From: Candidatus Poribacteria bacterium
GTDB taxonomy: Bacteria; Poribacteria; WGA-4E; WGA-3G
Reading direction: 5' to 3'
DNA length: 64,000 nucleotides
NCBI GenBank assembly: GCA_965197475.1
Contig: CBDANF010000003.1
Span: 3,104,001-3,168,000 of the forward strand
The translations under genes and the position numbers were made by a program. Below are positions 20,209-63,248 of this stretch, piece after piece. Within the stretch, counting starts at the first letter, position 1. Each line of letters opens with the position of its first letter. The notes below the pieces were generated by a model. It was not told where the DNA came from. It did no database searches and was given only the letters and a program-made list of their open reading frames with translations.

Positions 20209-21039
20209 TTAAGACAAGTTTTTTTGCTCAAATTCCACAGGTGTCAAATACCCTAACGCAGAGTGAGGGCGTTTGTGATTATACACTTGTGTAATAAAAT
20301 GCCCAATGCGGGTTCTTGCTTCGTGGATGTCCTCATAGTCATTGAGATGAACTTCTTCTTCCTTGAGCGTGCGGATAAGTCTTTCAGCATATCCGTTCTC
20401 CCAAGGACACCCTCTCCGGGCGACTGAAATCTCAATCCCATGATGCCTAAGCAGTGAGATGGACGCATTTGAAAGATATTGAACGCCTTGATCAGAATGA
20501 TGGATCTCTGGGACACTTTGACATAATGCTGTCTCCAAGGGTTTCAACGTCAGAGATTGCGTCAAGTGTTGACTGATATGCCACCCTCTGATCATGCGAG
20601 TGAAGACATCCATGAGCAGACAAACATAGATAAAGTGTCCTTTGAGGCGGACGTAGGTAATATCGCCCACCCAGACCTGATTACATCGGGAGACATCAAG
20701 GTTTTCAAGGCGATTGCTCCAGGGACGCACACCCGCAACGGATGTCGTGGTTTGACAGACACGCTTGACAGAAACCGAGAGGTTGGCGGACTTCATCAAT
20801 CGGGCAACACGTTTATACCCGATGGTGTATCCGCTACGCACCAACAACTGTGTGGGACGCCTATATCCGTATGTTGGATATAGCAAAGATAACGTCTCTA
20901 TTTCATCCTGGAGGCCCGCTTCACACGGGGCCTGCTTGGAGTGATAATAGAGGTTGCTTCGGTTGAAACCGAGTGTCTCACATATCTGCCGAACCGAAAA
21001 GTCTGTCCGTAATGCCGTAACCATTTCTCGCTGCTCCAT
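20209..21039 (-). CDS. IS3 transposase OrfB (DDE integrase core)
   Basis: WVGDITYV, HHSDQG, ENGYAER, YNHKRPHSALGY. Confidence 0.93.
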   Translation of the reverse strand: MEQREMVTALRTDFSVRQICETLGFNRSNLYYHSKQAPCEAGLQDEIETLSLLYPTYGYRRPTQLLVRSGYTIGYKRVARLMKSANLSVSVKRVCQTTTSVAGVRPWSNRLENLDVSRCNQVWVGDITYVRLKGHFIYVCLLMDVFTRMIRGWHISQHLTQSLTLKPLETALCQSVPEIHHSDQGVQYLSNASISLLRHHGIEISVARRGCPWENGYAERLIRTLKEEEVHLNDYEDIHEARTRIGHFITQVYNHKRPHSALGYLTPVEFEQKNLS

Positions 21040-21044
21040 CGAGG

Positions 21045-21335
21045 CTAACTCAAGTAAGTTGAGGCTTTTTTTTGGATGTCAAGTGCCAAGGTCAACCGCC
21101 CAACGAGTTGCTCAAGTTGGGCGATCCGCTCCGCAGAGGCATCAGACTGTTTATCAGCGGGTTCAAAGAGGGTCGCCGCTTTTTCAAGAAGCTGTCGCTT
21201 CCACTTTGAAAGTTGTTCATCGATGAGGTTATGTCGCCGACACACTTCTGCTTGGGAACTTTCAACGCTGAGAGCCTCAAGAACAACTTCGGCTTTAAAC
21301 TCGGGGGTGAAGTTTCTTCGTTTTCGTTTCGCCAT
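21045..21335 (-). CDS. IS3 transposase OrfA (HTH)
   Basis: RRNFTPEFKAEVV..VCRRH..WKRQ. Confidence 0.93.
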   Translation of the reverse strand: MAKRKRRNFTPEFKAEVVLEALSVESSQAEVCRRHNLIDEQLSKWKRQLLEKAATLFEPADKQSDASAERIAQLEQLVGRLTLALDIQKKASTYLS

Positions 21336-21499
21336 CGGATACTCCTTTCAAGGAGATGGATATTATACCATAATCTTGTCTTAGAGAGCGGCCCGAATTT
21401 CCGATGGCAGTACATATGCTTGTCTATTACACAATTATTGCTCAATAAAGTATATGGTATCAGTCCAGAGATGTCAACATCAATTTGATACAATTTACA

Positions 21500-28986: not shown

Positions 28987-29912
28987 TATAGTAAAACCTG
29001 TAATTACTTATACACTTTTATAATATCATCAATATATAATATCATCAATAGAGGTCTCAGCGTTGTATTGACGTATCCGCTTGATGTTAGCGAAATCCTT
29101 CTCAATCGGATTCAACTCCGGGGAATACGGCGGTAAAAACAACAAACTCGCACCGCATTCCCGGATCAATGCCGCCGTCTGTGAACCTTTGTGGAAAGGG
29201 GCATTATCCATAATCACAACGTGGCTGTCGTCAAGCAAAGGACATAACATCTCCGAAAGCCATGCGTTGAAGGCAACCGCATCGCAACTACCTTCGAAAA
29301 GCACAGGCACTGTGAAACATCCATCAAGACGTGCCGCAATCAAGGTTGTGGTGGTATACCGATGACTTGGCACTTTATCTTCAACACGGACACCTTTCGG
29401 GCATAAGCATACCGACGGAAATCGGTTTCGGTGAAACCACTTTCGTCAAGATAAACCGGTTTTTTGCCATGCTCGTGTGTCTCTTGTTGAAGTGCCGAGA
29501 GATACTCTTGGCGTTTTACCGGACACTGTTCTTTGTAGGTCGTGGTCTTTTTTTCGCGTGATATTGAGTTTTGCCAAGGCATAAAAGATGCCGTTTGTTG
29601 AAACACCGAAGTGTTTGGCACGTTCGGCGAGTGTGCTATCGGGAAAATCGGCAACATGTTGTTGAAGCGCATCATAATCAATGTGTCGGGGCCCTTTGGG
29701 ACCCGGCTTCTCATAGGCAAAGGGGTCTTCTGCTTCTAACCAGTTATAGATCGTCCTTCTTGAGACACCGAAGGTGCGTTCTGCGGCGGCTTTACTGCCA
29801 CCATTATTGATGAAATCAAGCACGCTTTTGCGTCCATCTGTTGAATATGCCATAATCATAAAGGCTAACATAAATCACAGAAAATGTAAACTTATTTTTG
29901 GGATCTACTATA
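28987..29912 (-). mobile_element. IS630-family insertion sequence; transposase frameshifted
   Basis: TATAGTA ends (TA target); HTH orfA from 29853, A7G slippery site 29548-29554, YLDESG, MDNAPFH, LPPYSPELNPIE; additional frameshift near 29399. Confidence 0.9.
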
Positions 29913-35716: not shown

Positions 35717-36721
35717 TCTGATATTTATCAAAATTCTTCATATGTCAATGTTTATCAATGTTTTCTTGGTATTTGTTCATGAAAATGCTCGCTGAGATCA
35801 GACAGCATCTGCCTCTGTCCTGAAAGTTCAAGTTGTCCTTGATGAAAGGTTTTTCGCACGGAGCGACTGACCTGCTGTATCAAAAGGTAGCTCATCACTT
35901 TCACACCTAAGTTCGCATACGCGCCATTCCGTCCTTTTAGGCTCATGGATGCGAGGTTTAGGTCTGTTTTTAGATACCGCCAATACTGTTCTATACCGTG
36001 GTGTTGAGACCATATCCGCAGGATTTCACAAGCACGGAGTGGTTTCCCGAATACGAGCATTGTTCGGACTTTGCCACGGTCTGCCAAGAACAACACCACT
36101 ACTTTTCCAAAAGTTGGACTTGTGGCTTTAGTGCGATAGACCGGTTTATCGCAACCCCATTGATTGGAGAGGAGTTTGATCGGCTTTTTATGCTCCGAGA
36201 GTTTCGCCCTTTTTTCATCAATCATCATCACATAGTTGCTTTTTCCGTGCACAAGGATCGTTTCAAATCCCATTTCTCGCAAGGTGTCAATCAAGTGGTG
36301 GCTGCCATACCACGCATCGAAGGTGATCGGATAGTTTCGGATATCTATTCCGGTCTCTTCAAAGAAGGACACCACTTCCTTGAACATAGTGATGACACAG
36401 GAGGGTTTATCCGTGTTCCCGCGGCCTTGTTTGCTGACCAGTCGCATATTCAGCGGAATGATCTGATTTCCAATCTTTATTGTGATCCCCAATATATTTT
36501 GTCTCTTCATCGGCTGATTTGCTTGAGAAGACCACCAATCAGATACGTAGAAGAGCTCCGCTCCATAACGGAAAACAAAGGTATCATCCACACTGATGAC
36601 GATACACAGACGCGATAGGGTAGAAGCACTTTTTGATACTGCCTCCTATAGCACCTCTAACGCAATAGAACACCCGATACGCACAAAAAGATGCTGCCAG
36701 AGATAAAGACTCATCGTATTC
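35717..36721 (-). mobile_element. Truncated copy of the IS701/IS4-like element also present at 50797-52154
   Basis: Near-identical to 50797-51801; transposase 5' part missing, cut at the IS3 end. Confidence 0.88.
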
Positions 36722-36800
36722 TGTACTGCCATCGGAAATTAGGGCCACTGTCTAAACCAAGATTGTGGTATAATAACAACCTAATTATAAGGAGTATCCG

Positions 36801-37100
36801 ATGGCGAAACGAAAACGAAGAAGCTTCACCCCCGAGTTTAAAGCGGAGGTTGTTCTTGAGGCCTTCAGCGGTGAAAGTTCCCAAGCAGAAGTGTGTCGCC
36901 GCCATAACCTCAGCGAAGACCAGCTCTCAAAGTGGAAGCAGCAACTCGTTGAAAATGCGGCATCTCTGTTTGCCTCCACGGATAAGCGATCCAGCGAGGC
37001 GGCCGAGCGGATCGCCCACCTTGAACAACTCGTTGGACGGTTAACCGTGGCATTAGACATCCCAAAAAAAGCCTCCACTTGGTTGAGTTACCTCGTCTGA
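36801..37100 (+). CDS. IS3 transposase OrfA
   Basis: Close paralog of 21045-21335. Confidence 0.9.
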   Translation: MAKRKRRSFTPEFKAEVVLEAFSGESSQAEVCRRHNLSEDQLSKWKQQLVENAASLFASTDKRSSEAAERIAHLEQLVGRLTVALDIPKKASTWLSYLV

Positions 37101-37122
37101 TAAGCGAAACCTCGTTGAGGCG

Positions 37123-37932
37123 TTGCGGGACGATTATTCAGTTCACCAGATTTGTGAGACGCTGGGTTTCAACCGGAGCCTTCTCTATTATCACCCGAAA
37201 AGGGATCCTTCTGAAGAGGTGCTTGGTGAGGAAATAGAGAAGTTATGTGCGCGTTATCCGAAATATGGGTATAGGCGTATCACGCAGATGCTGTTGGGTA
37301 TGGGATACACCATTGGGTATCGGCGCGTCGCCCGATTGATGAAATCCCAGAACTTGTCGGTTTCGGTCAAAGGGGTTTCCAGTCAAACTACGAGATCGCT
37401 TGAAGGTGCGCAGCCTTGGGTGAATCGCCTTGAAGCACTTGACATCTGTCGATGTGATCAGGTCTGAGTTGGCGATATAACGTATGTCCGTCTCCACAGA
37501 CGCTTCGTCTATGTTTCGGTGCTCATGGATGTATTCACTCGCATGATAAGAGGGTGGCAGGTCAGCCAACATTTGAACACATCTCTGACCCTGAAAGCCT
37601 TGGAACAGGCAGGACGCCAAAGTATCCCAGAGAGCCACCATAGCGATCAAGGGGTTCAGTCCCTTTCAAGTGCCTATATCTCAACGCTGAAACAGCACGG
37701 CATTGAGATTTCCTTAGCGCGTAGAGGGTGTCCGTGGGAGAACGGGTATGCTGAAAGGAGACCCATCCGAACTCTCAAAGAGGAAGAAGTTCATCTCAAT
37801 GATTATGAGGATATAACCGATGCCAGCACACGCATCGGGCATTTTATCACACAGGTGTATCATCACAAACGCCCTCACTCGGCGTTAGGGTATTTGACAC
37901 CTGTTGAATTTGAACAACAAAACTTGTCTTAA
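37123..37932 (+). pseudogene. IS3 transposase OrfB, interrupted
   Basis: CDQV*VGDITYV versus CNQVWVGDITYV in the intact copy. Confidence 0.85.
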
Positions 37933-50796: not shown

Positions 50797-52154
50797 TCTG
50801 ATATTTATCAAAATTCTTCATATGTCAATGTTTATCAATGTTTTCTTGGTATTTGTTCATGAAAATGCTCGCTGAGATCAGACAGCATCTGCCTCTGTCC
50901 TGAAAGTTCAAGTTGTCCTTGATGAAAGGTTTTTCGCACGGAGCGACTGACCTGCTGTATCAAAAGGTAGCTCATCACTTTCACACCTAAGTTCGCATAC
51001 GCGCCATTCCGTCCTTTTAGGCTCATGGATGCGAGGTTTAGGTCTGTTTTTAGATACCGCCAATACTGTTCTATACCGTGGTGTTGAGACCATATCCGCA
51101 GGATTTCACAAGCACGGAGTGGTTTCCCGAATACGAGCATTGTTCGGACTTTGCCACGGTCTGCCAAGAACAACACCACTACTTTTCCAAAAGTTGGACT
51201 TGTGGCTTTAGTCCGATAGACCGGTTTATCGCACCCCCATTGATTGGAGAGGAGTTTGATCGACTTTTTATGCTCCGAGAGTTTCACCTTTTTTTCATCA
51301 ATCGTCATCACATAGTTGCTTTTTCCGTGCACAAGGATCGTTTCAAATCCCATTTCTCGCAAGGTGTCAATCAAGTGGTGGCTGCCATACCACGCATCGA
51401 AGGTGATCGGATAGTTTCGGATATCTATTCCGGTCTCTTCAAAGAAGGACACCACTTCCTTGAACATAGTGATGACACAAGAGGGTTTATCCGTGTTCCC
51501 GCGGCCTTGTTTGCTGACCAGTCGCATATTCAGCGGAATGATCTGATTTCCAATCTTTAGGACGATCCCCAATATATTTTGCCCCTTCATCGGCTGTTTT
51601 GCTTGAGAAGACCACCAATTGGATGTGTAGGCGAGACCCTCTCCATAGCGGAAAACAAAGGTATCATCCACACTGATGACGATACGTAGACGCGATAGAG
51701 AAGCAGCACTTTTTGATACTGCCTCCTGTAGCACCTCTAACGCAATAGAACACCCGATACGCACAAAAAGATGCTGCCAGAGATAAAGACTCATCGTGTT
51801 CAGTTCCCGATATAGCCTCGTTTTCGGAATAGACAACGCATCCGCCACTTGATTCGGGTTAGTGAGCCCAAACAGATGACAGGTTGACAAAAACACTAAG
51901 GTATTAACAAAATGCTCTTTCAAGGTCCGAAACTGTGAAGATAGAAGTTCTTGAAAAAAAGTGGTAGATTTGATAAGCTGAGTTAGCATGAGATATCCTC
52001 CTAATGTTTGTTTATATTCAAATCTGTAATTAGGATGCTATCTCATGCTATAAAAGTCAAGGAAAATGGACACAGCAAAAACGCATTTTCATGGTGCTAT
52101 ACCTTGTTTCTATTGATTATTATTAGGTTCAAGACCATTCTGAGAAATATCAGA
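50797..52154 (-). mobile_element. IS701/IS4-like insertion sequence
   Basis: IRs TCTGATATTTATCAAAAT / TCTGATATTTCTCAGAAT; no target duplication visible. Confidence 0.85.
50835..51989 (-). CDS. DDE transposase
   Basis: VDDT, FDAWY, GIEQYWRYLK; AGGAGG RBS; second copy in window. Confidence 0.88.
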   Translation of the reverse strand: MLTQLIKSTTFFQELLSSQFRTLKEHFVNTLVFLSTCHLFGLTNPNQVADALSIPKTRLYRELNTMSLYLWQHLFVRIGCSIALEVLQEAVSKSAASLSRLRIVISVDDTFVFRYGEGLAYTSNWWSSQAKQPMKGQNILGIVLKIGNQIIPLNMRLVSKQGRGNTDKPSCVITMFKEVVSFFEETGIDIRNYPITFDAWYGSHHLIDTLREMGFETILVHGKSNYVMTIDEKKVKLSEHKKSIKLLSNQWGCDKPVYRTKATSPTFGKVVVLFLADRGKVRTMLVFGKPLRACEILRIWSQHHGIEQYWRYLKTDLNLASMSLKGRNGAYANLGVKVMSYLLIQQVSRSVRKTFHQGQLELSGQRQMLSDLSEHFHEQIPRKH

Positions 52155-52390: not shown

Positions 52391-53769
52391 ATGACAGTGC
52401 GTGATAAAGTCTGGGACAGATGTGTAATTACCGCTACAAATGAGTCTCAAGCGGTTGTCTACCGACTCCAACTACAACACTTGAAAAAAAAGGGGGTACT
52501 CCATCCGGAGACGGAATACCTTGTTATTCCAGACCCCGGTGGGGTAAGAATAGGCAGTGGGGGGCAACATTCCACGTTCTCAGACAGTTGCAAAGCAACG
52601 GTCAAGAAACGGACAGGGTAGATTCCCGCCTTCTTATACTCCACTCGGGCGGAGACAGTCGACGGATTCCCCATCAAAGTCTTTTTGGAAAAGTGTTTGC
52701 CCCGCTTCCACCACCAATGGATTCCATCTTTGAAGTAATGTATCATTTTCTCACGCCCATCGGTGCTCAGATTGATGCGGGAATAGTGGTAGCATGTGGG
52801 GACACATGGATCCAATTGAACACCTCTGGTGCAATGTCATCGTCTCCCGATTCAATTTCACTTTCCGAAGGATTCGACGTGACAGGAATCGCCTATTGGG
52901 GATCTATTGAACTCGGAAGCCGACACGGTGTCTATGACATTGCTAAAAACACGCAGGAAGTCCAGCATTGTCTACAAAAGCACCCTGCTGAAAAGTTGCG
53001 TGATGCAGGTGTTTGCGACCCCTCAGGGAGGGTTGCAATTGATACAGGCATTTTACTCTTTCGCCCCACTGCGATGATGCAACTACAATCGTTAGCCAAC
53101 TTATTCCCTGAAGATGTTTACGTCGATCTGCACGGAGATATACTCCCCGCGATGGCAAGCAAAACTGATCGTTACCGGTTTACGAGCAAACACCCATACC
53201 TTTGGACACTATTATGGGAAAAGTTGTCTATGCTTCGCTTTAGTGTCTGCAGTCCGCCATCGCTTGAGTTTGCGCACACAGGCACGACGCAGGAATACCT
53301 TGAATTGATTAAACACCCGATTAAGGCACACACGTCGATCTCGTGTCAAGTTCCATTGGACGAGGGATGGGTAAACTTGATTTACGGTGTGATGGATGTG
53401 CCGACTGTCTGTGGAGACGATGCCACGCTTTTCGGACAATCTATTCTCCAATGGCTACACCATCATGAGCTAACCCCCGAAGCAATTTGGAACGAAGAAA
53501 AGAGGGCAAACGCTTCCCAATGTTGTCTCTGGAATGCCCGTTTCTATCCCACCTATCATACTACCAACCCGAATGTCGCATTTTCGATTTCAATAGAAGA
53601 TTCAATCGAACAGCCCGACTGGTTCCGGAGGCCCAACGCAGAATGGCGAAACAGTGAACGACTCTCTATGGGAGAAATCATAGCACGTGCCGATAGGGTG
53701 AAAGTTTTCGTTCAACAGCAAAAAGTGGATTCATTTGGTTTCATACGCAATAAAAAATCGTCAAAATGA
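52391..53769 (+). pseudogene. Fucose-1-phosphate guanylyltransferase/fucokinase-N-like gene, frameshifted at G6 (52559-52564)
   Basis: WD..VITA..Q..Y, DPGG.RIGSGG then, with one extra G, ATFHVL..LILHSGGDSRRIP. Confidence 0.75.
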
Positions 53770-58660: not shown

Positions 58661-59407
58661 GTGCGGCTTGAGAAATATATCGCTACTTCAGGTATCGCCT
58701 CTCGACGAGCAGTAAAACGAGCAATTCGTGAGGGACATGTCTCCGTAAACGGCACAAAGATTGTCATTCCTGGGCACCCAATTGACGTGGAAAAGGATTA
58801 TATTGAATTTGAAGGAAAACAGGTTGAACCGCTAACAGAATGTATCTATCTCATGTTGAATAAACCTACTGGTTATTTGACAACCCGTCGTGATGAGCGC
58901 GGTCGTCCTACGGTAATGGATCTTTTAGCGGATCTACCTAAATCTATTTATCCAGTAGGGCGTTTGGATTTAGAGACTGAAGGTCTTCTGCTATTTACGA
59001 ACGATGGAAAATTCGCTTATCGGTTGATGCATCCCAGTCATGAGATTGAAAAGACCTATCTCGCGTGGGTAAACGGTGTTCCAAGCAATCGCGCACTGGA
59101 CCGCTTACGTAATGGTGTCGCTATTCCTGGCGGAATAACATCCCCGGCAAAAATCAAGCGGTTAAATGTGAAGCATGTTCCTATTTCAACAGTGAAGAAA
59201 AGAGCAGATAAGAACGAGACAGTATCAAAACTTAGGGTGATTATCCACGAAGGAAAAAAACGGCAGGTCCGTTTTATGTTTAAGGCGGTGGGGCACCGAG
59301 TGATCCGATTGAAACGAACGCGTGTCGGCACATTAGGGTTGGGCAATCTCCCGCAGGGGCAGTATCGATTTCTGACCCCCGCGGAAGTTGCTAAATTACA
59401 AGTTTAG
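58661..59407 (+). CDS. rluB: rRNA pseudouridine synthase (RluB/RsuA family)
   Basis: S4 RLEKY..SRR; PVGRLD..TEGLLL.TNDG; EGKKRQVR. Confidence 0.88.
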   Translation: MRLEKYIATSGIASRRAVKRAIREGHVSVNGTKIVIPGHPIDVEKDYIEFEGKQVEPLTECIYLMLNKPTGYLTTRRDERGRPTVMDLLADLPKSIYPVGRLDLETEGLLLFTNDGKFAYRLMHPSHEIEKTYLAWVNGVPSNRALDRLRNGVAIPGGITSPAKIKRLNVKHVPISTVKKRADKNETVSKLRVIIHEGKKRQVRFMFKAVGHRVIRLKRTRVGTLGLGNLPQGQYRFLTPAEVAKLQV

Positions 59408-60612
59408 TTGTCGCCTTCATCTGCGGCTTCCGCAGATGATTTTTTGACATCTGTCAGTACTTTCTCAGCACCTTGCTTCAACCGTTCATTGGTGGTGTGA
59501 TTCATTAACTTTTCAAGCACCGCAATAGATTTATCAAGCTGTCCGTCGAGTGAATAGGTAACCCCAAGATAATACTGAGCAAAGTCATAAACACTGCTCT
59601 TTGGATATGTGTTTATGACTTTTTGGAAGTGCATCTCAGCCATTTTTGCGCTTTCAGCTGCTACACCTTCTGCTTTGCCTTGAATCAGATTGACGTAAGT
59701 GAGTCCGATTTGCATGTGCATATCAGGAAGAAGTCCCGAAATGTTTTCTGGGTCTTTTTCGAAAACCCTTTCACTGAACGGGAGTGCTTTCTTAATTTTC
59801 TTCTGTTGCAAATAGGTAACAGCGATTTTGTGGTTCAACTTGACATCATTAGGCATCTTCTCACTAATCAGAAGTGCTTTGCCAATTTCGTTCTTACTAA
59901 GATAAAAGAAACCGAATTCGCGGTTAAGTTCAACATCATTAGGCATCTTTTTGCTAATCAGAAGTGCTTTGTCAATTTCATTCTTACCAAGATAAAAGAT
60001 ACCGAATTCGCGGTTGAGTTCAACATCGTCAGGCATCTTTTTACTGATCGGAAGTGCTTTGTCAATTTGTTGCCGTTTCAGATAGAGAATGGCAATTTCA
60101 CGGTTCAGTTTGGGATCGTCAGGCTTTTCCATGAATTTCGCCAATTTTTCTTGGAATTCTGCCTCTTTTTTTAGGACATCTTCCATTACAGGTAAAAATT
60201 CATCAGGAGCCGCGTAACCTGAGTGGTTCTTGATAACACCACCATCCGGGGCAATAAACAGAATTGCGGGGAATCCTCTAACCCCGTATTTTTTCCGTGC
60301 TTCCTCATTTGCAGGTTGTTCCTTAATTTCTGGGTTTACTTTGACAGGAATGAAATTCTCTGCGATGGTAACAATACGCGCATCCGTGAATGTGTCGGCA
60401 TCCAGCCGCTTACACCAACCTCACCAATCTGTATAGAAGTCCATCATAATGGGTTTGCCGGTTTCAGTGGCTTGTGAGGTTGCTTCTGCAATAGAAGTTC
60501 CCCATTGGACTTTTTCCCCTTCTGCAAGAACTGGAATTGATACTGCCATTAACAAAAGAACAGTAAGTCCAGCCAGATAGGGGACGTGTCGGTGAAAAAC
60601 AGAATTAAACAT
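59404..60612 (-). CDS. Putative selenoprotein: exported thioredoxin-like (WUGWC) domain plus TPR-like repeats, 402 aa
   Basis: AAGGAG RBS; signal peptide; MDFYTDW-TGA(60421-60423)-GWCKRLD..YGVRGFPAILF, in frame with ORF 59404..60186. Confidence 0.9.
59764..60123 (-). repeat. Four tandem 90-bp (30-aa) coding repeats
   Basis: AGGC(A/T)T units at 59851, 59941, 60031, 60121; P(D/N)D..LN.E...YL....I.KAL.IS.KM. Confidence 0.85.
60392..60415 (-). promoter_or_regulatory. Candidate bacterial SECIS hairpin
   Basis: GUGU-AAG-CGGC-UGGAU-GCCG-ACAC; upper stem starts 12 nt after the UGA. Confidence 0.7.
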
Positions 60613-60819
60613 TAGTTCTCTCCTTATTTTAACTTGAGCGATCAAAATGAGGCATTTGCCTAAATTGTGATGTTGAGCGGAAATCCGCGCAAACGGGTAC
60701 CGCTTTCATAATTGTTAACATAATATCACATTCAAGAAAAAATGTCCAGAAAAAATAGGATGTGTAAATATTTTGTCACATAGGAGCAATGGATAAAGAA
60801 AACGGCATGTGTTTCTACT

Positions 60820-61084
60820 GTAGGGCGGGGTCTCTGCGCCACGCCAGCAGCACCAGCAGTGCGGAATGTGTAAGAAAACAACCTCCAACACCCTCTTGAG
60901 CCCAGCGGTGCGACAGGTGTATTACAACCCATATAATGGACACCTTTCGCCCCTCTGGGGCTTTGTGAATGGGGGTTACGACTGTTCTATACACCTTTCG
61001 TCCCTCTGGGGCTTAGATATCCAAAATATAGGTTTATTTCCTTAAATTGACATAAGGGTTTCACGGTGTTCCACCCAACCTACA
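60820..61084. repeat. Intergenic cluster of REP-like units
   Basis: GTAGGGCG..; ACACCTTTCG(C/T)CCCTCTGGGGCTT at 60940 and 60991 with an inverted copy at about 60898; ..CAACCTAC. Confidence 0.6.
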
Positions 61085-61230: not shown

Positions 61231-61458
61231 ATGTCTAATGAACGACTGACATTTGAGGAAACGGAACAGAAATATCCTGACGAATGGTTGTTTATCGTTG
61301 ATTGCGAACACAGCGAAAACACAGAACTTCTGTCAGGACGCGTTTTAGTCCATAGTAAATCCCGTGCTGATATTTATAATGCTTCAGGGCATTATAAAGG
61401 TGGTGCAGCAATACGTTATACTGGTGAACTCCCGAAGGGGATAAGGTACCTGTTATAA
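61231..61458 (+). CDS. Small hypothetical protein (75 aa)
   Basis: AGGAGG RBS; KYPDEWL..GRVLVHS..YTG; stop overlaps the next start. Confidence 0.75.
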   Translation: MSNERLTFEETEQKYPDEWLFIVDCEHSENTELLSGRVLVHSKSRADIYNASGHYKGGAAIRYTGELPKGIRYLL

Positions 61459-63248
61459 TGACACACAAAATTGCAATTATCGTACTCTTACTTCTTGCCC
61501 TACCAATAGCAGCGGACGCACAGTCAGACTATACGATACCGAAAAAACATCGCGTCATTCAAGAATCGTCAAAGCAGCATGTGAGTGTGCCTGTTGATGC
61601 CCAACTTCCAAATGTAACCTTTACATCCCTGGAAGATAAAACATTCCACCTTAACACCCTCATCAAGCAGGGATCAGTTGTTTTTGTGTTCCTATCCGCA
61701 GAATGCCCAGTTGCCCAACGATACGCAATGCGGTTGAAGCGGATGGATGCCGAATTTTCTGCCAGACATGTTACCTTTATCGGTGTCTATTCCAACGAAA
61801 ACGATTCGGTAGATGATGTCAAGGCATACATAGCACGGGCAGAGTACCCGTTCCCGATTGTCAAGGATACCGATGGAAGTTTAGCTCGCCATCTCGGTGC
61901 GACGATGACCCCACAGGCACATCTTATTGATATGTCTGGTATTCTGCGCTACCGTGGCCCGATTGACGATAATCGCTACGAAACACGGGTAAAGCATAAT
62001 TACCTGAAAGATGCACTCGTAGCAGTGTTGAATGGAAAACCTGTGCCAGTGAAAGAGACACCCGCTTTTGGATGTACAATCCATCTCCCCGAATTGCCTG
62101 TCCAAAACCAGATAACCTATAGTGAACATATCGCACCGATACTACAAAAAAATTGCCTAACCTGTCATCATCAGGATGGGATAGCACCGTTCGCGCTTGC
62201 GGACTATGATAACGTGAAGACACGCGCTGTCAAAATTGCCGAATACACGCAGGCACGCCTCATGCCTCCATGGAAACCGGTGCATGGTTTTGGCGAATTC
62301 AAAAACGAAAGACGACTCACAGACACCGAAATTGATATGATAGCGAAATGGGTTAAAACTGGCACGGCAGCAGGTCCCGCAACCAATGACAAAACTACAC
62401 CACTATCTTCGGAGACATGGACACTCGGAAAACCTGATTGGGTTATTGATACCCCCGAGGAATTTGCCAAGTGCCATGCCTCAATTGTCATTACAGATAA
62501 TTTTAAGAAAGATATATACATACAAGGAGTAGATTTTCAATTAGAGAAAAATAAAACAGTGCGCGGCGTTACCGCAACCTTTGGTGCAAAAATCTTTACA
62601 ATGCGAACTGATCAACTTGATGGATCTCATGTAATTTCAATTGGAATAAGCCCTAACATCAGTGAAAAGGGTTTACATGGTGTATGTACACCGGGTTTTG
62701 CTCCTGTACTTCTACCTGAAGGCATCGGGTATCTGTTGCCAAAGGAGAAAAATATAATCCTAAACATAGAATATCACAACGCTGATCATCAGGAACACGA
62801 CGGTTTGCGGGTAGGACTCTATTTTTCAAAAACACCAGAGACCGCACAGTTACGTAAAGCAACTCTCATGAACCGCCTACTGAAGAAACCAAGAAATTTG
62901 AATCAGTATAATGTGTTTTCTTCATACGACTTCAAATCCGATGTCTATGTTTACGGTGTATATCCATCAATAGATGCATATAAACATAATATGCGGATTG
63001 TTGCCAAAACTCAAACTGATGAACATATTAAAATGCTATGGATTAAGGCATCTGACTTTAAGTGGCAAGATATATACTACTATCAAGAACCGATATTTTT
63101 ACCCGCAGGTTCACGATTGGTATTTGATTTGCAGGAGGATTCGGAAAATCAGAATGTTCGGAAGTTATCCGATCAAAAGAATAAAAAAGCAGCTAAACTA
63201 ACTTGCCACTTCCTTTATGTGTTAGCATCTGAATATACTCCGGATTGA
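61458..63248 (+). CDS. Exported redoxin-domain protein with CxxCH motif and monooxygenase-like C-terminus
   Basis: Signal peptide; ECPVA, YRGPIDD, FGC; CLTCH; MPPW. Confidence 0.8.
   Translation: MTHKIAIIVLLLLALPIAADAQSDYTIPKKHRVIQESSKQHVSVPVDAQLPNVTFTSLEDKTFHLNTLIKQGSVVFVFLSAECPVAQRYAMRLKRMDAEFSARHVTFIGVYSNENDSVDDVKAYIARAEYPFPIVKDTDGSLARHLGATMTPQAHLIDMSGILRYRGPIDDNRYETRVKHNYLKDALVAVLNGKPVPVKETPAFGCTIHLPELPVQNQITYSEHIAPILQKNCLTCHHQDGIAPFALADYDNVKTRAVKIAEYTQARLMPPWKPVHGFGEFKNERRLTDTEIDMIAKWVKTGTAAGPATNDKTTPLSSETWTLGKPDWVIDTPEEFAKCHASIVITDNFKKDIYIQGVDFQLEKNKTVRGVTATFGAKIFTMRTDQLDGSHVISIGISPNISEKGLHGVCTPGFAPVLLPEGIGYLLPKEKNIILNIEYHNADHQEHDGLRVGLYFSKTPETAQLRKATLMNRLLKKPRNLNQYNVFSSYDFKSDVYVYGVYPSIDAYKHNMRIVAKTQTDEHIKMLWIKASDFKWQDIYYYQEPIFLPAGSRLVFDLQEDSENQNVRKLSDQKNKKAAKLTCHFLYVLASEYTPD

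Follow-up and report, generated by a model that had tools for sequence, protein, structure and literature searches.

A conserved in-frame TGA, predicted to encode selenocysteine, in the gene for a predicted exported UxxC thioredoxin-TPR protein of Candidatus Poribacteria

A stretch of 64,000 nucleotides (nt) from Candidatus Poribacteria (hereafter the window; assembly GCA_965197475.1, contig CBDANF010000003.1, positions 3,104,001 to 3,168,000) carries on its minus strand two neighboring open reading frames (ORFs) that we read as a single gene, interrupted in standard translation by one in-frame TGA. We propose, with a probability of roughly 0.8, that this gene encodes an exported UxxC thiol-disulfide reductase/isomerase (U, selenocysteine) with a tetratricopeptide-repeat (TPR) arm for client binding. 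Judged from the sequence and its relatives, the 'stop' codon is almost certainly read as selenocysteine to yield one exported redox enzyme. The original prediction of a single exported thioredoxin-TPR selenoprotein is now backed by a cysteine/selenocysteine pair among homologs, conservation of the TGA, fit to the model of bacterial selenocysteine insertion sequences (SECIS), synonymous constraint, a compensatory base pair and purifying selection.

One reading frame across the TGA

Under translation table 11, the upstream ORF (60421..60645, minus strand) closes with ...DFYTDW-TGA and a second ORF (59404..60186, minus strand) encodes 260 residues. Translating TGA as U merges the two into 402 residues that end at a TAA, with U64 as the sole recoded step (...DFYTDW-U-GWCKRLD...YGVRGFP...). 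Pfam thioredoxin models cross the TGA (Thioredoxin_2 over residues 48-142, 55.2 bits, E 1e-14; Thioredoxin_7 over residues 37-122) and TPR models match downstream of the thioredoxin part, whereas, of the pieces searched separately, the 63-residue one matches no family and the 260-residue one TPRs only. The continuous frame and the models spanning the codon thus bear out the proposal that the split ORFs are one gene. The TGA was likewise correctly placed at the attacking-cysteine position of the thioredoxin WxxxC motif, as U64 aligns with the first cysteine of WCGWC in outside homologs and of WCGPC in PDB 2kuc.

To place the gene among its relatives, GTDB genomes were scanned with two patterns taken from the C-terminal TPR helices. 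Relatives were encoded by 106 stretches, of which we analyzed the best 80, each on a separate contig (loci labeled L); one of them, L016, ends before the TGA site. All named close relatives are Candidatus Poribacteria. The true start of the window's gene is the ATG at 60612 and not the TTG at 60645, because AAGGAG sits 7 nt ahead of it; 79 of the 80 genes share such a start and its strong Shine-Dalgarno match (5-6 nt).

The TGA is invariant and the sequence beyond it is constrained

All 79 loci that cover the site have TGA at the position of codon 64, and TGC or TGT occurs in none (0/79). Around it the frame stays open for 62-103 codons before the TGA and 232-338 after, at thioredoxin-domain identities of 47-86%. 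Since the scan patterns derive from the C-terminal TPR part, far from the codon, the TGA count is not biased toward it. Nor does constraint end at the TGA: by a simple Nei-Gojobori estimate (median over 13 close relatives), the ratio of nonsynonymous to synonymous substitution rates (dN/dS) is 0.19 for residues 31-63, 0.11 for residues 65-142 (from the TGA to the next methionine), 0.12 for 143-190 and 0.24 for 270-395. The stretch after the TGA is under purifying selection.

These data bear directly on the reading without recoding, in which the TGA would be a nonsense mutation, a sequencing error or the genuine end of the first of two products, a 63-residue secreted peptide and a restarted TPR protein. 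Protein databases do carry the gene as two proteins, in several cases with consecutive locus tags (OXI43_00620/00625, OXM61_21615/21620, J4G08_00440/00435): most long matches begin after the TGA site, and 52 of 82 short database proteins stop exactly at the motif, a pattern that overlooks two more ending in YTNT. The hairpin described below is, moreover, energetically unremarkable. However, the same TGA with an intact frame in every covering genome down to 47% domain identity, a dN/dS of 0.11 in a supposedly untranslated segment, predicted restart sites that are scattered among the relatives, and a stop that would cut one folded domain at its active site leave this explanation a negligible probability.

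Equally negligible is an organism-wide reassignment of TGA to tryptophan or glycine (code 4 or 25), which would turn the motif into WWGWC or WGGWC. It can point to six database proteins with tryptophan at the site (P0003, P0071, P0084, P0085, P0090 and P0095; database proteins are labeled P). Yet in the 26,130 codons of the 80 genes an in-frame TGA occurs once per gene, at the codon 64 site (80 times), next to 205 tryptophan codons written TGG and three genes that end on TGA at normal length; complete genes of the window such as pdxJ also terminate with TGA. The tryptophan-bearing proteins lie beside TGA loci on the tree, and these records are probably artefacts of gene callers switching to TGA=Trp, which would hide selenoproteins as WWGWC.

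A cysteine/selenocysteine pair and a probable single early gain

The closest full-length relatives outside the group carry DFYTDWCGWCKRLD at the active site. Distant full-length relatives with the same layout of signal peptide, thioredoxin domain and TPRs have WCGWC, and the two forms therefore make a cysteine/selenocysteine pair. As the original prediction anticipated for the homolog alignment, WCGWC is the commonest motif, with 76 motif matches among proteins P0002-P0266. The WCGWC proteins (P0102-P0110, P0142, P0157 and others) share the architecture and a near-identical active-site context, but have cysteine in place of selenocysteine and 29-42% identity, and are themselves uncharacterized; on sequence grounds they are likely the cysteine-containing parent family. 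The Poribacteria gene would then descend from this widespread family, having exchanged Cys for Sec early in the lineage.

In a catalytic-domain tree, 26 chosen TGA genes and four WCDTC/WSRWC proteins make up one group (support 99) against 16 outside cysteine proteins. Monophyly of the TGA genes without those four proteins is rejected (approximately unbiased test, p-AU 0.031), which is modest evidence, from a quick tree under a simple model and with the group named after inspection. The four (P0050, P0065 and P0068 with WCDTC; P0123 with WSRWC) are poribacteria-like, share the architecture, have cysteine or serine at the selenocysteine position and are nested in the TGA group; they probably represent a derived branch that went from selenocysteine to cysteine or serine. 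The simplest history suggested by these sequences is one early Cys-to-Sec gain in the lineage and a later derived branch losing selenocysteine.

A minimal, nearly invariant hairpin follows the codon

The hairpin CGGC-UGGAU-GCCG that had been noticed past the TGA is indeed present, at +16..+28 counted from the T of the TGA, which leaves 12 nt between codon and stem. The bacterial SECIS consensus, as summarized in a review, comprises an apical loop of 3-9 nt with a G in its first two positions, a stem of 4-16 bp, a UGA-to-loop distance of 16-37 nt and a minimum free energy (MFE) of at most -7.5 kcal/mol (PMC13188914). The element has a 5-nt loop, U-G-G-A-U, with G at loop position 2, a 4-bp stem and a 16-nt distance, so that loop, stem and spacing all lie within the consensus model, stem and spacing both at its lower limit. 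For the segment +1..+45, the MFE is at or below -7.5 kcal/mol in 80/80 sequences (-11.2 in the window), but the conserved hairpin by itself, at about -6.8, does not reach that value.

Conservation, rather than stability, supports the hairpin, because its folding energy is no better than that of shuffled sequences. For codons 69-72 the synonymous-entropy ratio is 0.09, lower than in any other of 167 four-codon windows, where the remaining 166 scored codons have a median of 0.81; all 73 Arg69 codons are CGG and all 80 Leu70 codons CTG. All four stem pairs are kept in 56/56 distinct rows, while for slid structures the paired share of cells is 0.4-75%. At pair 17-27, 48 of the distinct rows have G-C, seven A-U and one G-U, a pattern matched by 0/500 shuffles; we place no weight on the corresponding Fisher test (p 2.5e-9), which takes no account of kinship. 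A-U is seen in L079 and in a single group of six loci, where a sub-group has probably reverted to G-C, for a total of two to three events on a quick tree. With the TGA standing at the codon in 79/79 related loci, the observation goes beyond chance.

We consider it very probable that a ribosome reaching UGA64 would meet SelB with Sec-tRNA(Sec) on the GG-containing loop 16 nt downstream and insert selenocysteine, as in the general bacterial scheme of SelB loop reading outlined in the review (PMC13188914). Failed insertion would release a 63-residue stub.

Selenocysteine machinery and points against recoding

In a published supplementary table, the SelA/SelB/SelD counts are 2/1/1 for WGA-3G, 4/1/2 for bin44 and 2/1/1 for bin70, which are all the Poribacteria of that table (PMC5649159). 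SelA counts above 1 may include paralogs. WGA-3G is our locus L061 and carries the TGA gene. One further Poribacteria metagenome-assembled genome (MAG), from another order, is given SelA, SelB, SelD and two tRNA-Sec, with no tRNA(ReC) listed, in a second supplement (PMC13582414). Both the phylum and at least one genome with the TGA gene thus have the selenocysteine trait, and we infer active selenocysteine decoding in the window's own genome.

The same sources address a subtler alternative, in which a tRNA of the SelC*/tRNA(ReC) type would rely on this hairpin to recode the UGA as cysteine and so give an ordinary CxxC enzyme. SECIS-dependent tRNAs that recode UGA have been described (PMC13582414), and every DNA measurement made here fits either residue. 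In contrast, SelA and SelD, needed for selenium only, occur in all three of the tabulated genomes (PMC5649159), the further Poribacteria entry pairs its two tRNA-Sec with no tRNA(ReC) (PMC13582414), and retention of TGA in all covering loci is hard to explain if TGC made the same protein. We consider cysteine recoding very unlikely.

Several observations weigh against selenocysteine insertion or against the function that we propose. In the 64-kb window ARAGORN and Rfam gave no tRNA-Sec or other Rfam match (over the 80 loci ARAGORN found three ordinary tRNAs and no tRNA-Sec), and tblastn with E. coli SelA, SelB and SelD gave no match at E 1e-3 in the window and 1.52 Mb of flanks, a null that says nothing about the genome as a whole. 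Scanned in six frames and judged by eye, the window yielded no second convincing selenoprotein TGA; in the flanks, 2,910 TGA-centered windows reduced to 95 spanning a homologous ORF and to 10 with a cysteine opposite, and these ten were rejected by eye as antisense or shadow frames. Taken alone, the hairpin folds at only -6.8 kcal/mol, and the window's 64-nt segment has z = +0.89 with 165/200 shuffles folding as well, so that folding stability was rejected as evidence. It appears in the MFE structure of 49/80 sequences, with a pair probability above 0.5 in 44/80, and the alignment fold retains the 4-bp helix only, with no conserved lower or longer stem. Three of the four pairs are invariant, the count of pairs with two-sided change is reached by 341/500 shuffles, and the 5' side of the compensatory change doubles as an Arg-to-Gln change. 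On the functional side, no gene in the conserved-neighbor survey indicates a client or electron donor, and the direction of catalysis, reductase versus oxidase, is read from resemblance to DsbD-gamma and DsbH.

Protein architecture and predicted structure

Table 1. Features of the predicted selenoprotein gene (window coordinates)
Feature	Position	Strand	Remarks
Full coding sequence	59404..60612	-	402 codons + TAA, with a single TGA in frame; predicted to encode an exported selenoprotein with thioredoxin (UxxC), repeat and TPR parts
Sigma-70-like promoter match, TGGACA-17 nt-TATTAT with TG extension	60720..60748	-	Consensus match only
Shine-Dalgarno sequence AAGGAG	60620..60625	-	7 nt before ATG 60612
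Signal peptide, Sec/SPI type, residues 1-30	60523..60612	-	Basic n-region, hydrophobic core, ...PVLA|EG cleavage-like site; heuristic call
Thioredoxin-fold domain, DsbD-gamma/DsbH/Thioredoxin_7 type, residues ~33-146	60175..60516	-	Pfam, NCBIfam, model and structure matches
Codon 64 (TGA), predicted to be the selenocysteine that opens U-G-W-C	60421..60423	-	Start of helix 65-74
Cys67, predicted resolving cysteine	60412..60414	-	Motif position
Predicted bacterial SECIS, 4-bp stem CGGC/GCCG, 5-nt loop UGGAU	60396..60408	-	Conservation
G-F-P115, thioredoxin cis-Pro loop position	60268..60276	-	Just before strand 116-120; cis geometry inferred from fold
Tandem array of a 90-nt unit (2.5 copies, 90% match) that codes for helix-pair repeats of 30 residues	59843..60068	-	0 to 3 extra copies among relatives
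Conserved C-terminal TPR-like helices, residues ~273-398, including the (Q)YYLG(V)TY motif	59419..59796	-	Pfam, alignment, model and structure matches

The features of the gene are collected in Table 1. A simple-rule signal scan of the 80 genes found a net positive n-region in 78 and an AxA-type site in 70; a lipobox and a twin-arginine motif are absent from all 80, and lipoprotein or twin-arginine (Tat) export was rejected on that ground. In an AlphaFold2 model built from a 30-row alignment with cysteine placed at position 64, residues 1-30 have a low predicted local distance difference test score (pLDDT) within a mean of 90.2, the U-G-W-C motif opens helix 65-74, Pro115, invariant among relatives, precedes strand 116-120, and helix pairs continue to residue 398. 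Cys67 is the sole other cysteine of the mature protein in 79/80 genes.

The helical repeats expected after the thioredoxin domain are present, but the middle ones are 30-residue hairpins of variable copy number and not canonical 34-residue TPRs. Between two anchors lie 16 residues in 56 of the genes, 46 in one, 76 in 16, 82 in two and 106 in five, from which it follows that the arm grows by whole 30-residue units; the window's repeat stretch is among the longest. A Foldseek search ranked E. coli YbbN first; next came DsbD-gamma and DsbH, which match the catalytic domain, and consensus TPR proteins, which match the tail.

Comparison with known systems

The closest solved folds for the catalytic domain are DsbD gamma (PDB 1uc7) and Chlamydia DsbH (2ju5), with TM-scores by target of 0.74 and 0.67. 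Both act as extracytoplasmic reductants. Unlike them, the protein described here lacks the membrane and Ig-like domains of DsbD and has a predicted selenocysteine and a TPR arm, and it scores far below the NCBIfam cut-offs for DsbD (NF001419, 54 versus 330) and DsbH (NF043050, 39.9 versus 190). No NCBIfam family is in fact above cut-off (NCBIfam 20.0, which includes TsoB). TsoB (NF045694), Trx7/PDZ (NF041199) and VPGUxxT type 2 (NF041383) are selenoproteins with a related thioredoxin domain, against which the scores are 80.4, 25.4 and 24 bits for cut-offs of 805, 300 and 275; the best NCBIfam match is to the last domain of TsoB. Catalogued selenocysteine motifs (UxxxxU, CxxU, VPGU) and partner domains differ from those of this UxxC protein.

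A 119-family table of selenoproteins lists several UxxC entries of the thioredoxin fold, one of them under PF13098 (PMC13188914). That entry, a 'Thiol:disulfide interchange protein' (representative WP_011366075.1), shares the UxxC motif, the thioredoxin fold and a SECIS within the coding region; its catalog row names no TPR, a comparison by description only. Our protein matches PF13098 at 55.2 bits against a cut-off of 27, with UGWC. No entry of the 119-family table names a TPR or repeat arm, and 'TPR' occurs 0 times in the review itself (PMC13188914) and 0 times in the GOS (Global Ocean Sampling) paper's main text (PMC2398784); a term search of PMC12013277 gave 0 occurrences of Poribacteria, TPR or thioredoxin. 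We found no publication that joins Poribacteria, thioredoxin and TPR, in a search that lay outside the deep-Sep, GOS and groundwater-MAG supplements and subscription papers, which could list such genes under a generic thioredoxin-like label.

Genomic neighborhood

The gene follows mnmE, the last gene of the series rnpA-yidD-yidC-jag-mnmE, at a distance of 189-2039 nt in 67 of 79 loci. Of the 12 loci without this linkage, four are cut by contig ends within 1.4 kb and eight, with enough flank, have lost it; the linkage is also lost in the window. That this position recurs in all three main branches of the gene tree suggests a single-copy ortholog, and the gene behaves like a Poribacteria housekeeping gene. 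Functional coupling to yidC was set aside, as synteny is suggestive only and broken in the window. The promoter-like site upstream scores 10/12 consensus matches, where 8 such sites were found versus 3.9 +/- 1.9 in shuffles, and a comparable stretch lies upstream in the close relatives L015, L011, L002 and L012. Downstream of the window's gene, those for a pseudouridine synthase, a HAD hydrolase, pdxJ, glutamate dehydrogenase and an NHL protein recur in 51-64 of 80 regions, window included.

Other features of these surroundings were recorded in passing. Short, imperfect, repeated or palindromic GC-rich units occupy 60880-61020, upstream of the gene, where relatives have mnmE, and may be traces of the rearrangement by which gene and yidC operon came apart. 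An HNH-like gene (L028:3886-4422, plus strand, and 64 other loci), with a weak IscB match of 56.9 bits against a cut-off of 175, lies just upstream of rnpA-yidD-yidC-jag-mnmE. At 59404-59439, the gene's stop overlaps by 4 nt that of the convergent pseudouridine synthase gene, whose terminator-like hairpin falls inside the last codons of the predicted selenoprotein gene. At 61458-63248 (plus strand), a divergent 596-residue protein with a signal-peptide-like start, an AhpC/TSA-Redoxin domain that carries one cysteine (SAECPVAQ) and a CxxCH heme-like motif is likely, from its sequence, a second exported redox protein, outside the conserved-neighbor set. Farther away, two overlapping ORFs of 76 and 393 residues in different frames (52391-53769, plus strand) resemble what we take to be one frameshifted sugar-kinase/pyrophosphorylase-like gene, and presumably transposase-like ORFs or fragments lie at 20209-21493, 29446-29871, 35755-37932 and 50835-51989; those at 35755-36591 and 50835-51989 are near-identical copies, and an in-frame TGA at 37465 in a transposase-like ORF looks like ordinary decay.

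Proposed function and its main rival

The predicted signal peptide would most likely direct the chain to the Sec translocon and be cleaved after Ala30, so that the enzyme would work outside the cytoplasm. There, as fold and motif suggest, the selenolate of residue 64 would probably attack a client disulfide or oxidized thiol, with Cys67 resolving the mixed bond, in a reductase or isomerase of envelope proteins; this role is favored because the nearest folds are DsbD-gamma and DsbH. A membrane donor, probably of the DsbD/CcdA type, would supply the electrons that reduce the resulting Se-S bond again. The helical-repeat/TPR arm, varying in length by 30-residue units, could grip client or partner proteins and set specificity, a role for which we see about even odds.

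The main functional rival keeps the selenoprotein and makes it chiefly chaperone-like, an extracytoplasmic counterpart of CnoX whose TPR groove would hold unfolded exported proteins and shield their cysteines, with redox chemistry secondary. CnoX fuses a thioredoxin to a TPR domain (PMC8129009), and CnoX/YbbN (E. coli b0492, PDB 3qou), likewise an N-terminal thioredoxin followed by TPR helices, is the top Foldseek match (E 3.6e-7); the position after rnpA-yidD-yidC-jag-mnmE, which includes the membrane insertase YidC, would also suit such a role. However, the match to CnoX is by parts only, because the TM-score is 0.21 and the root-mean-square deviation 20.6: the domains are arranged differently, and the two proteins share 17% identity (E 0.055). 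TPR_20 scores 103.5 bits at the C-terminus of CnoX but 18.4 bits (cut-off 25) over residues 149-187 here, and a predicted signal peptide, a Thioredoxin_7/DsbD-gamma-type domain and a predicted selenocysteine set this protein apart from CnoX, whose thioredoxin domain begins at residue 6. Membership in the CnoX family was rejected on the low identity, the missing C-terminal TPR_20 block and the signal-peptide features found in 70-78 of 80 genes. The CnoX partner GroEL/ES is cytoplasmic, and against a tie to YidC stand the gap after mnmE, the window gene's own promoter-like site and the lost linkage in the window and eight further loci. We consider a mainly chaperone-like role unlikely, and return to an exported thiol-disulfide reductase/isomerase: the protein would work like known thioredoxin-fold selenoproteins and is CnoX-like in layout only.

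Significance

The surprise is moderate, because no selenoproteins are commoner than those with UxxC in a thioredoxin fold and the chemistry itself is already known. The combination of a signal peptide, a UxxC thioredoxin domain and expandable helical repeats with TPRs is, apparently, an uncatalogued architecture. The 4-bp stem and UGGAU loop, tiny and nearly invariant, with natural compensatory variants, offer a test case for the minimal element recognized by SelB. The gene is systematically mis-annotated across Poribacteria, and its annotation can now be corrected, databases giving a 63-residue hypothetical protein and a 'TPR protein' without signal peptide or active site. TPR counts in Poribacteria have been discussed in terms of eukaryote-like host-interaction factors (PMC3909097); the TPR protein described here is the tail of a predicted redox enzyme.

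For the Poribacteria, abundant uncultured sponge symbionts, the gene supplies a predicted selenoprotein conserved throughout the lineage; the only other one found in our literature search is a hydrogenase variant in one MAG. A bolder possibility, which we likewise consider unlikely, is a selenium-dependent extracytoplasmic chaperedoxin that would both hold and redox-repair new envelope proteins and has been kept beside the yidC operon across Poribacteria. If so, a CnoX-like function would have been invented independently outside the cytoplasm and upgraded to selenocysteine, and envelope quality control in a dominant sponge symbiont would depend on the supply of selenium.

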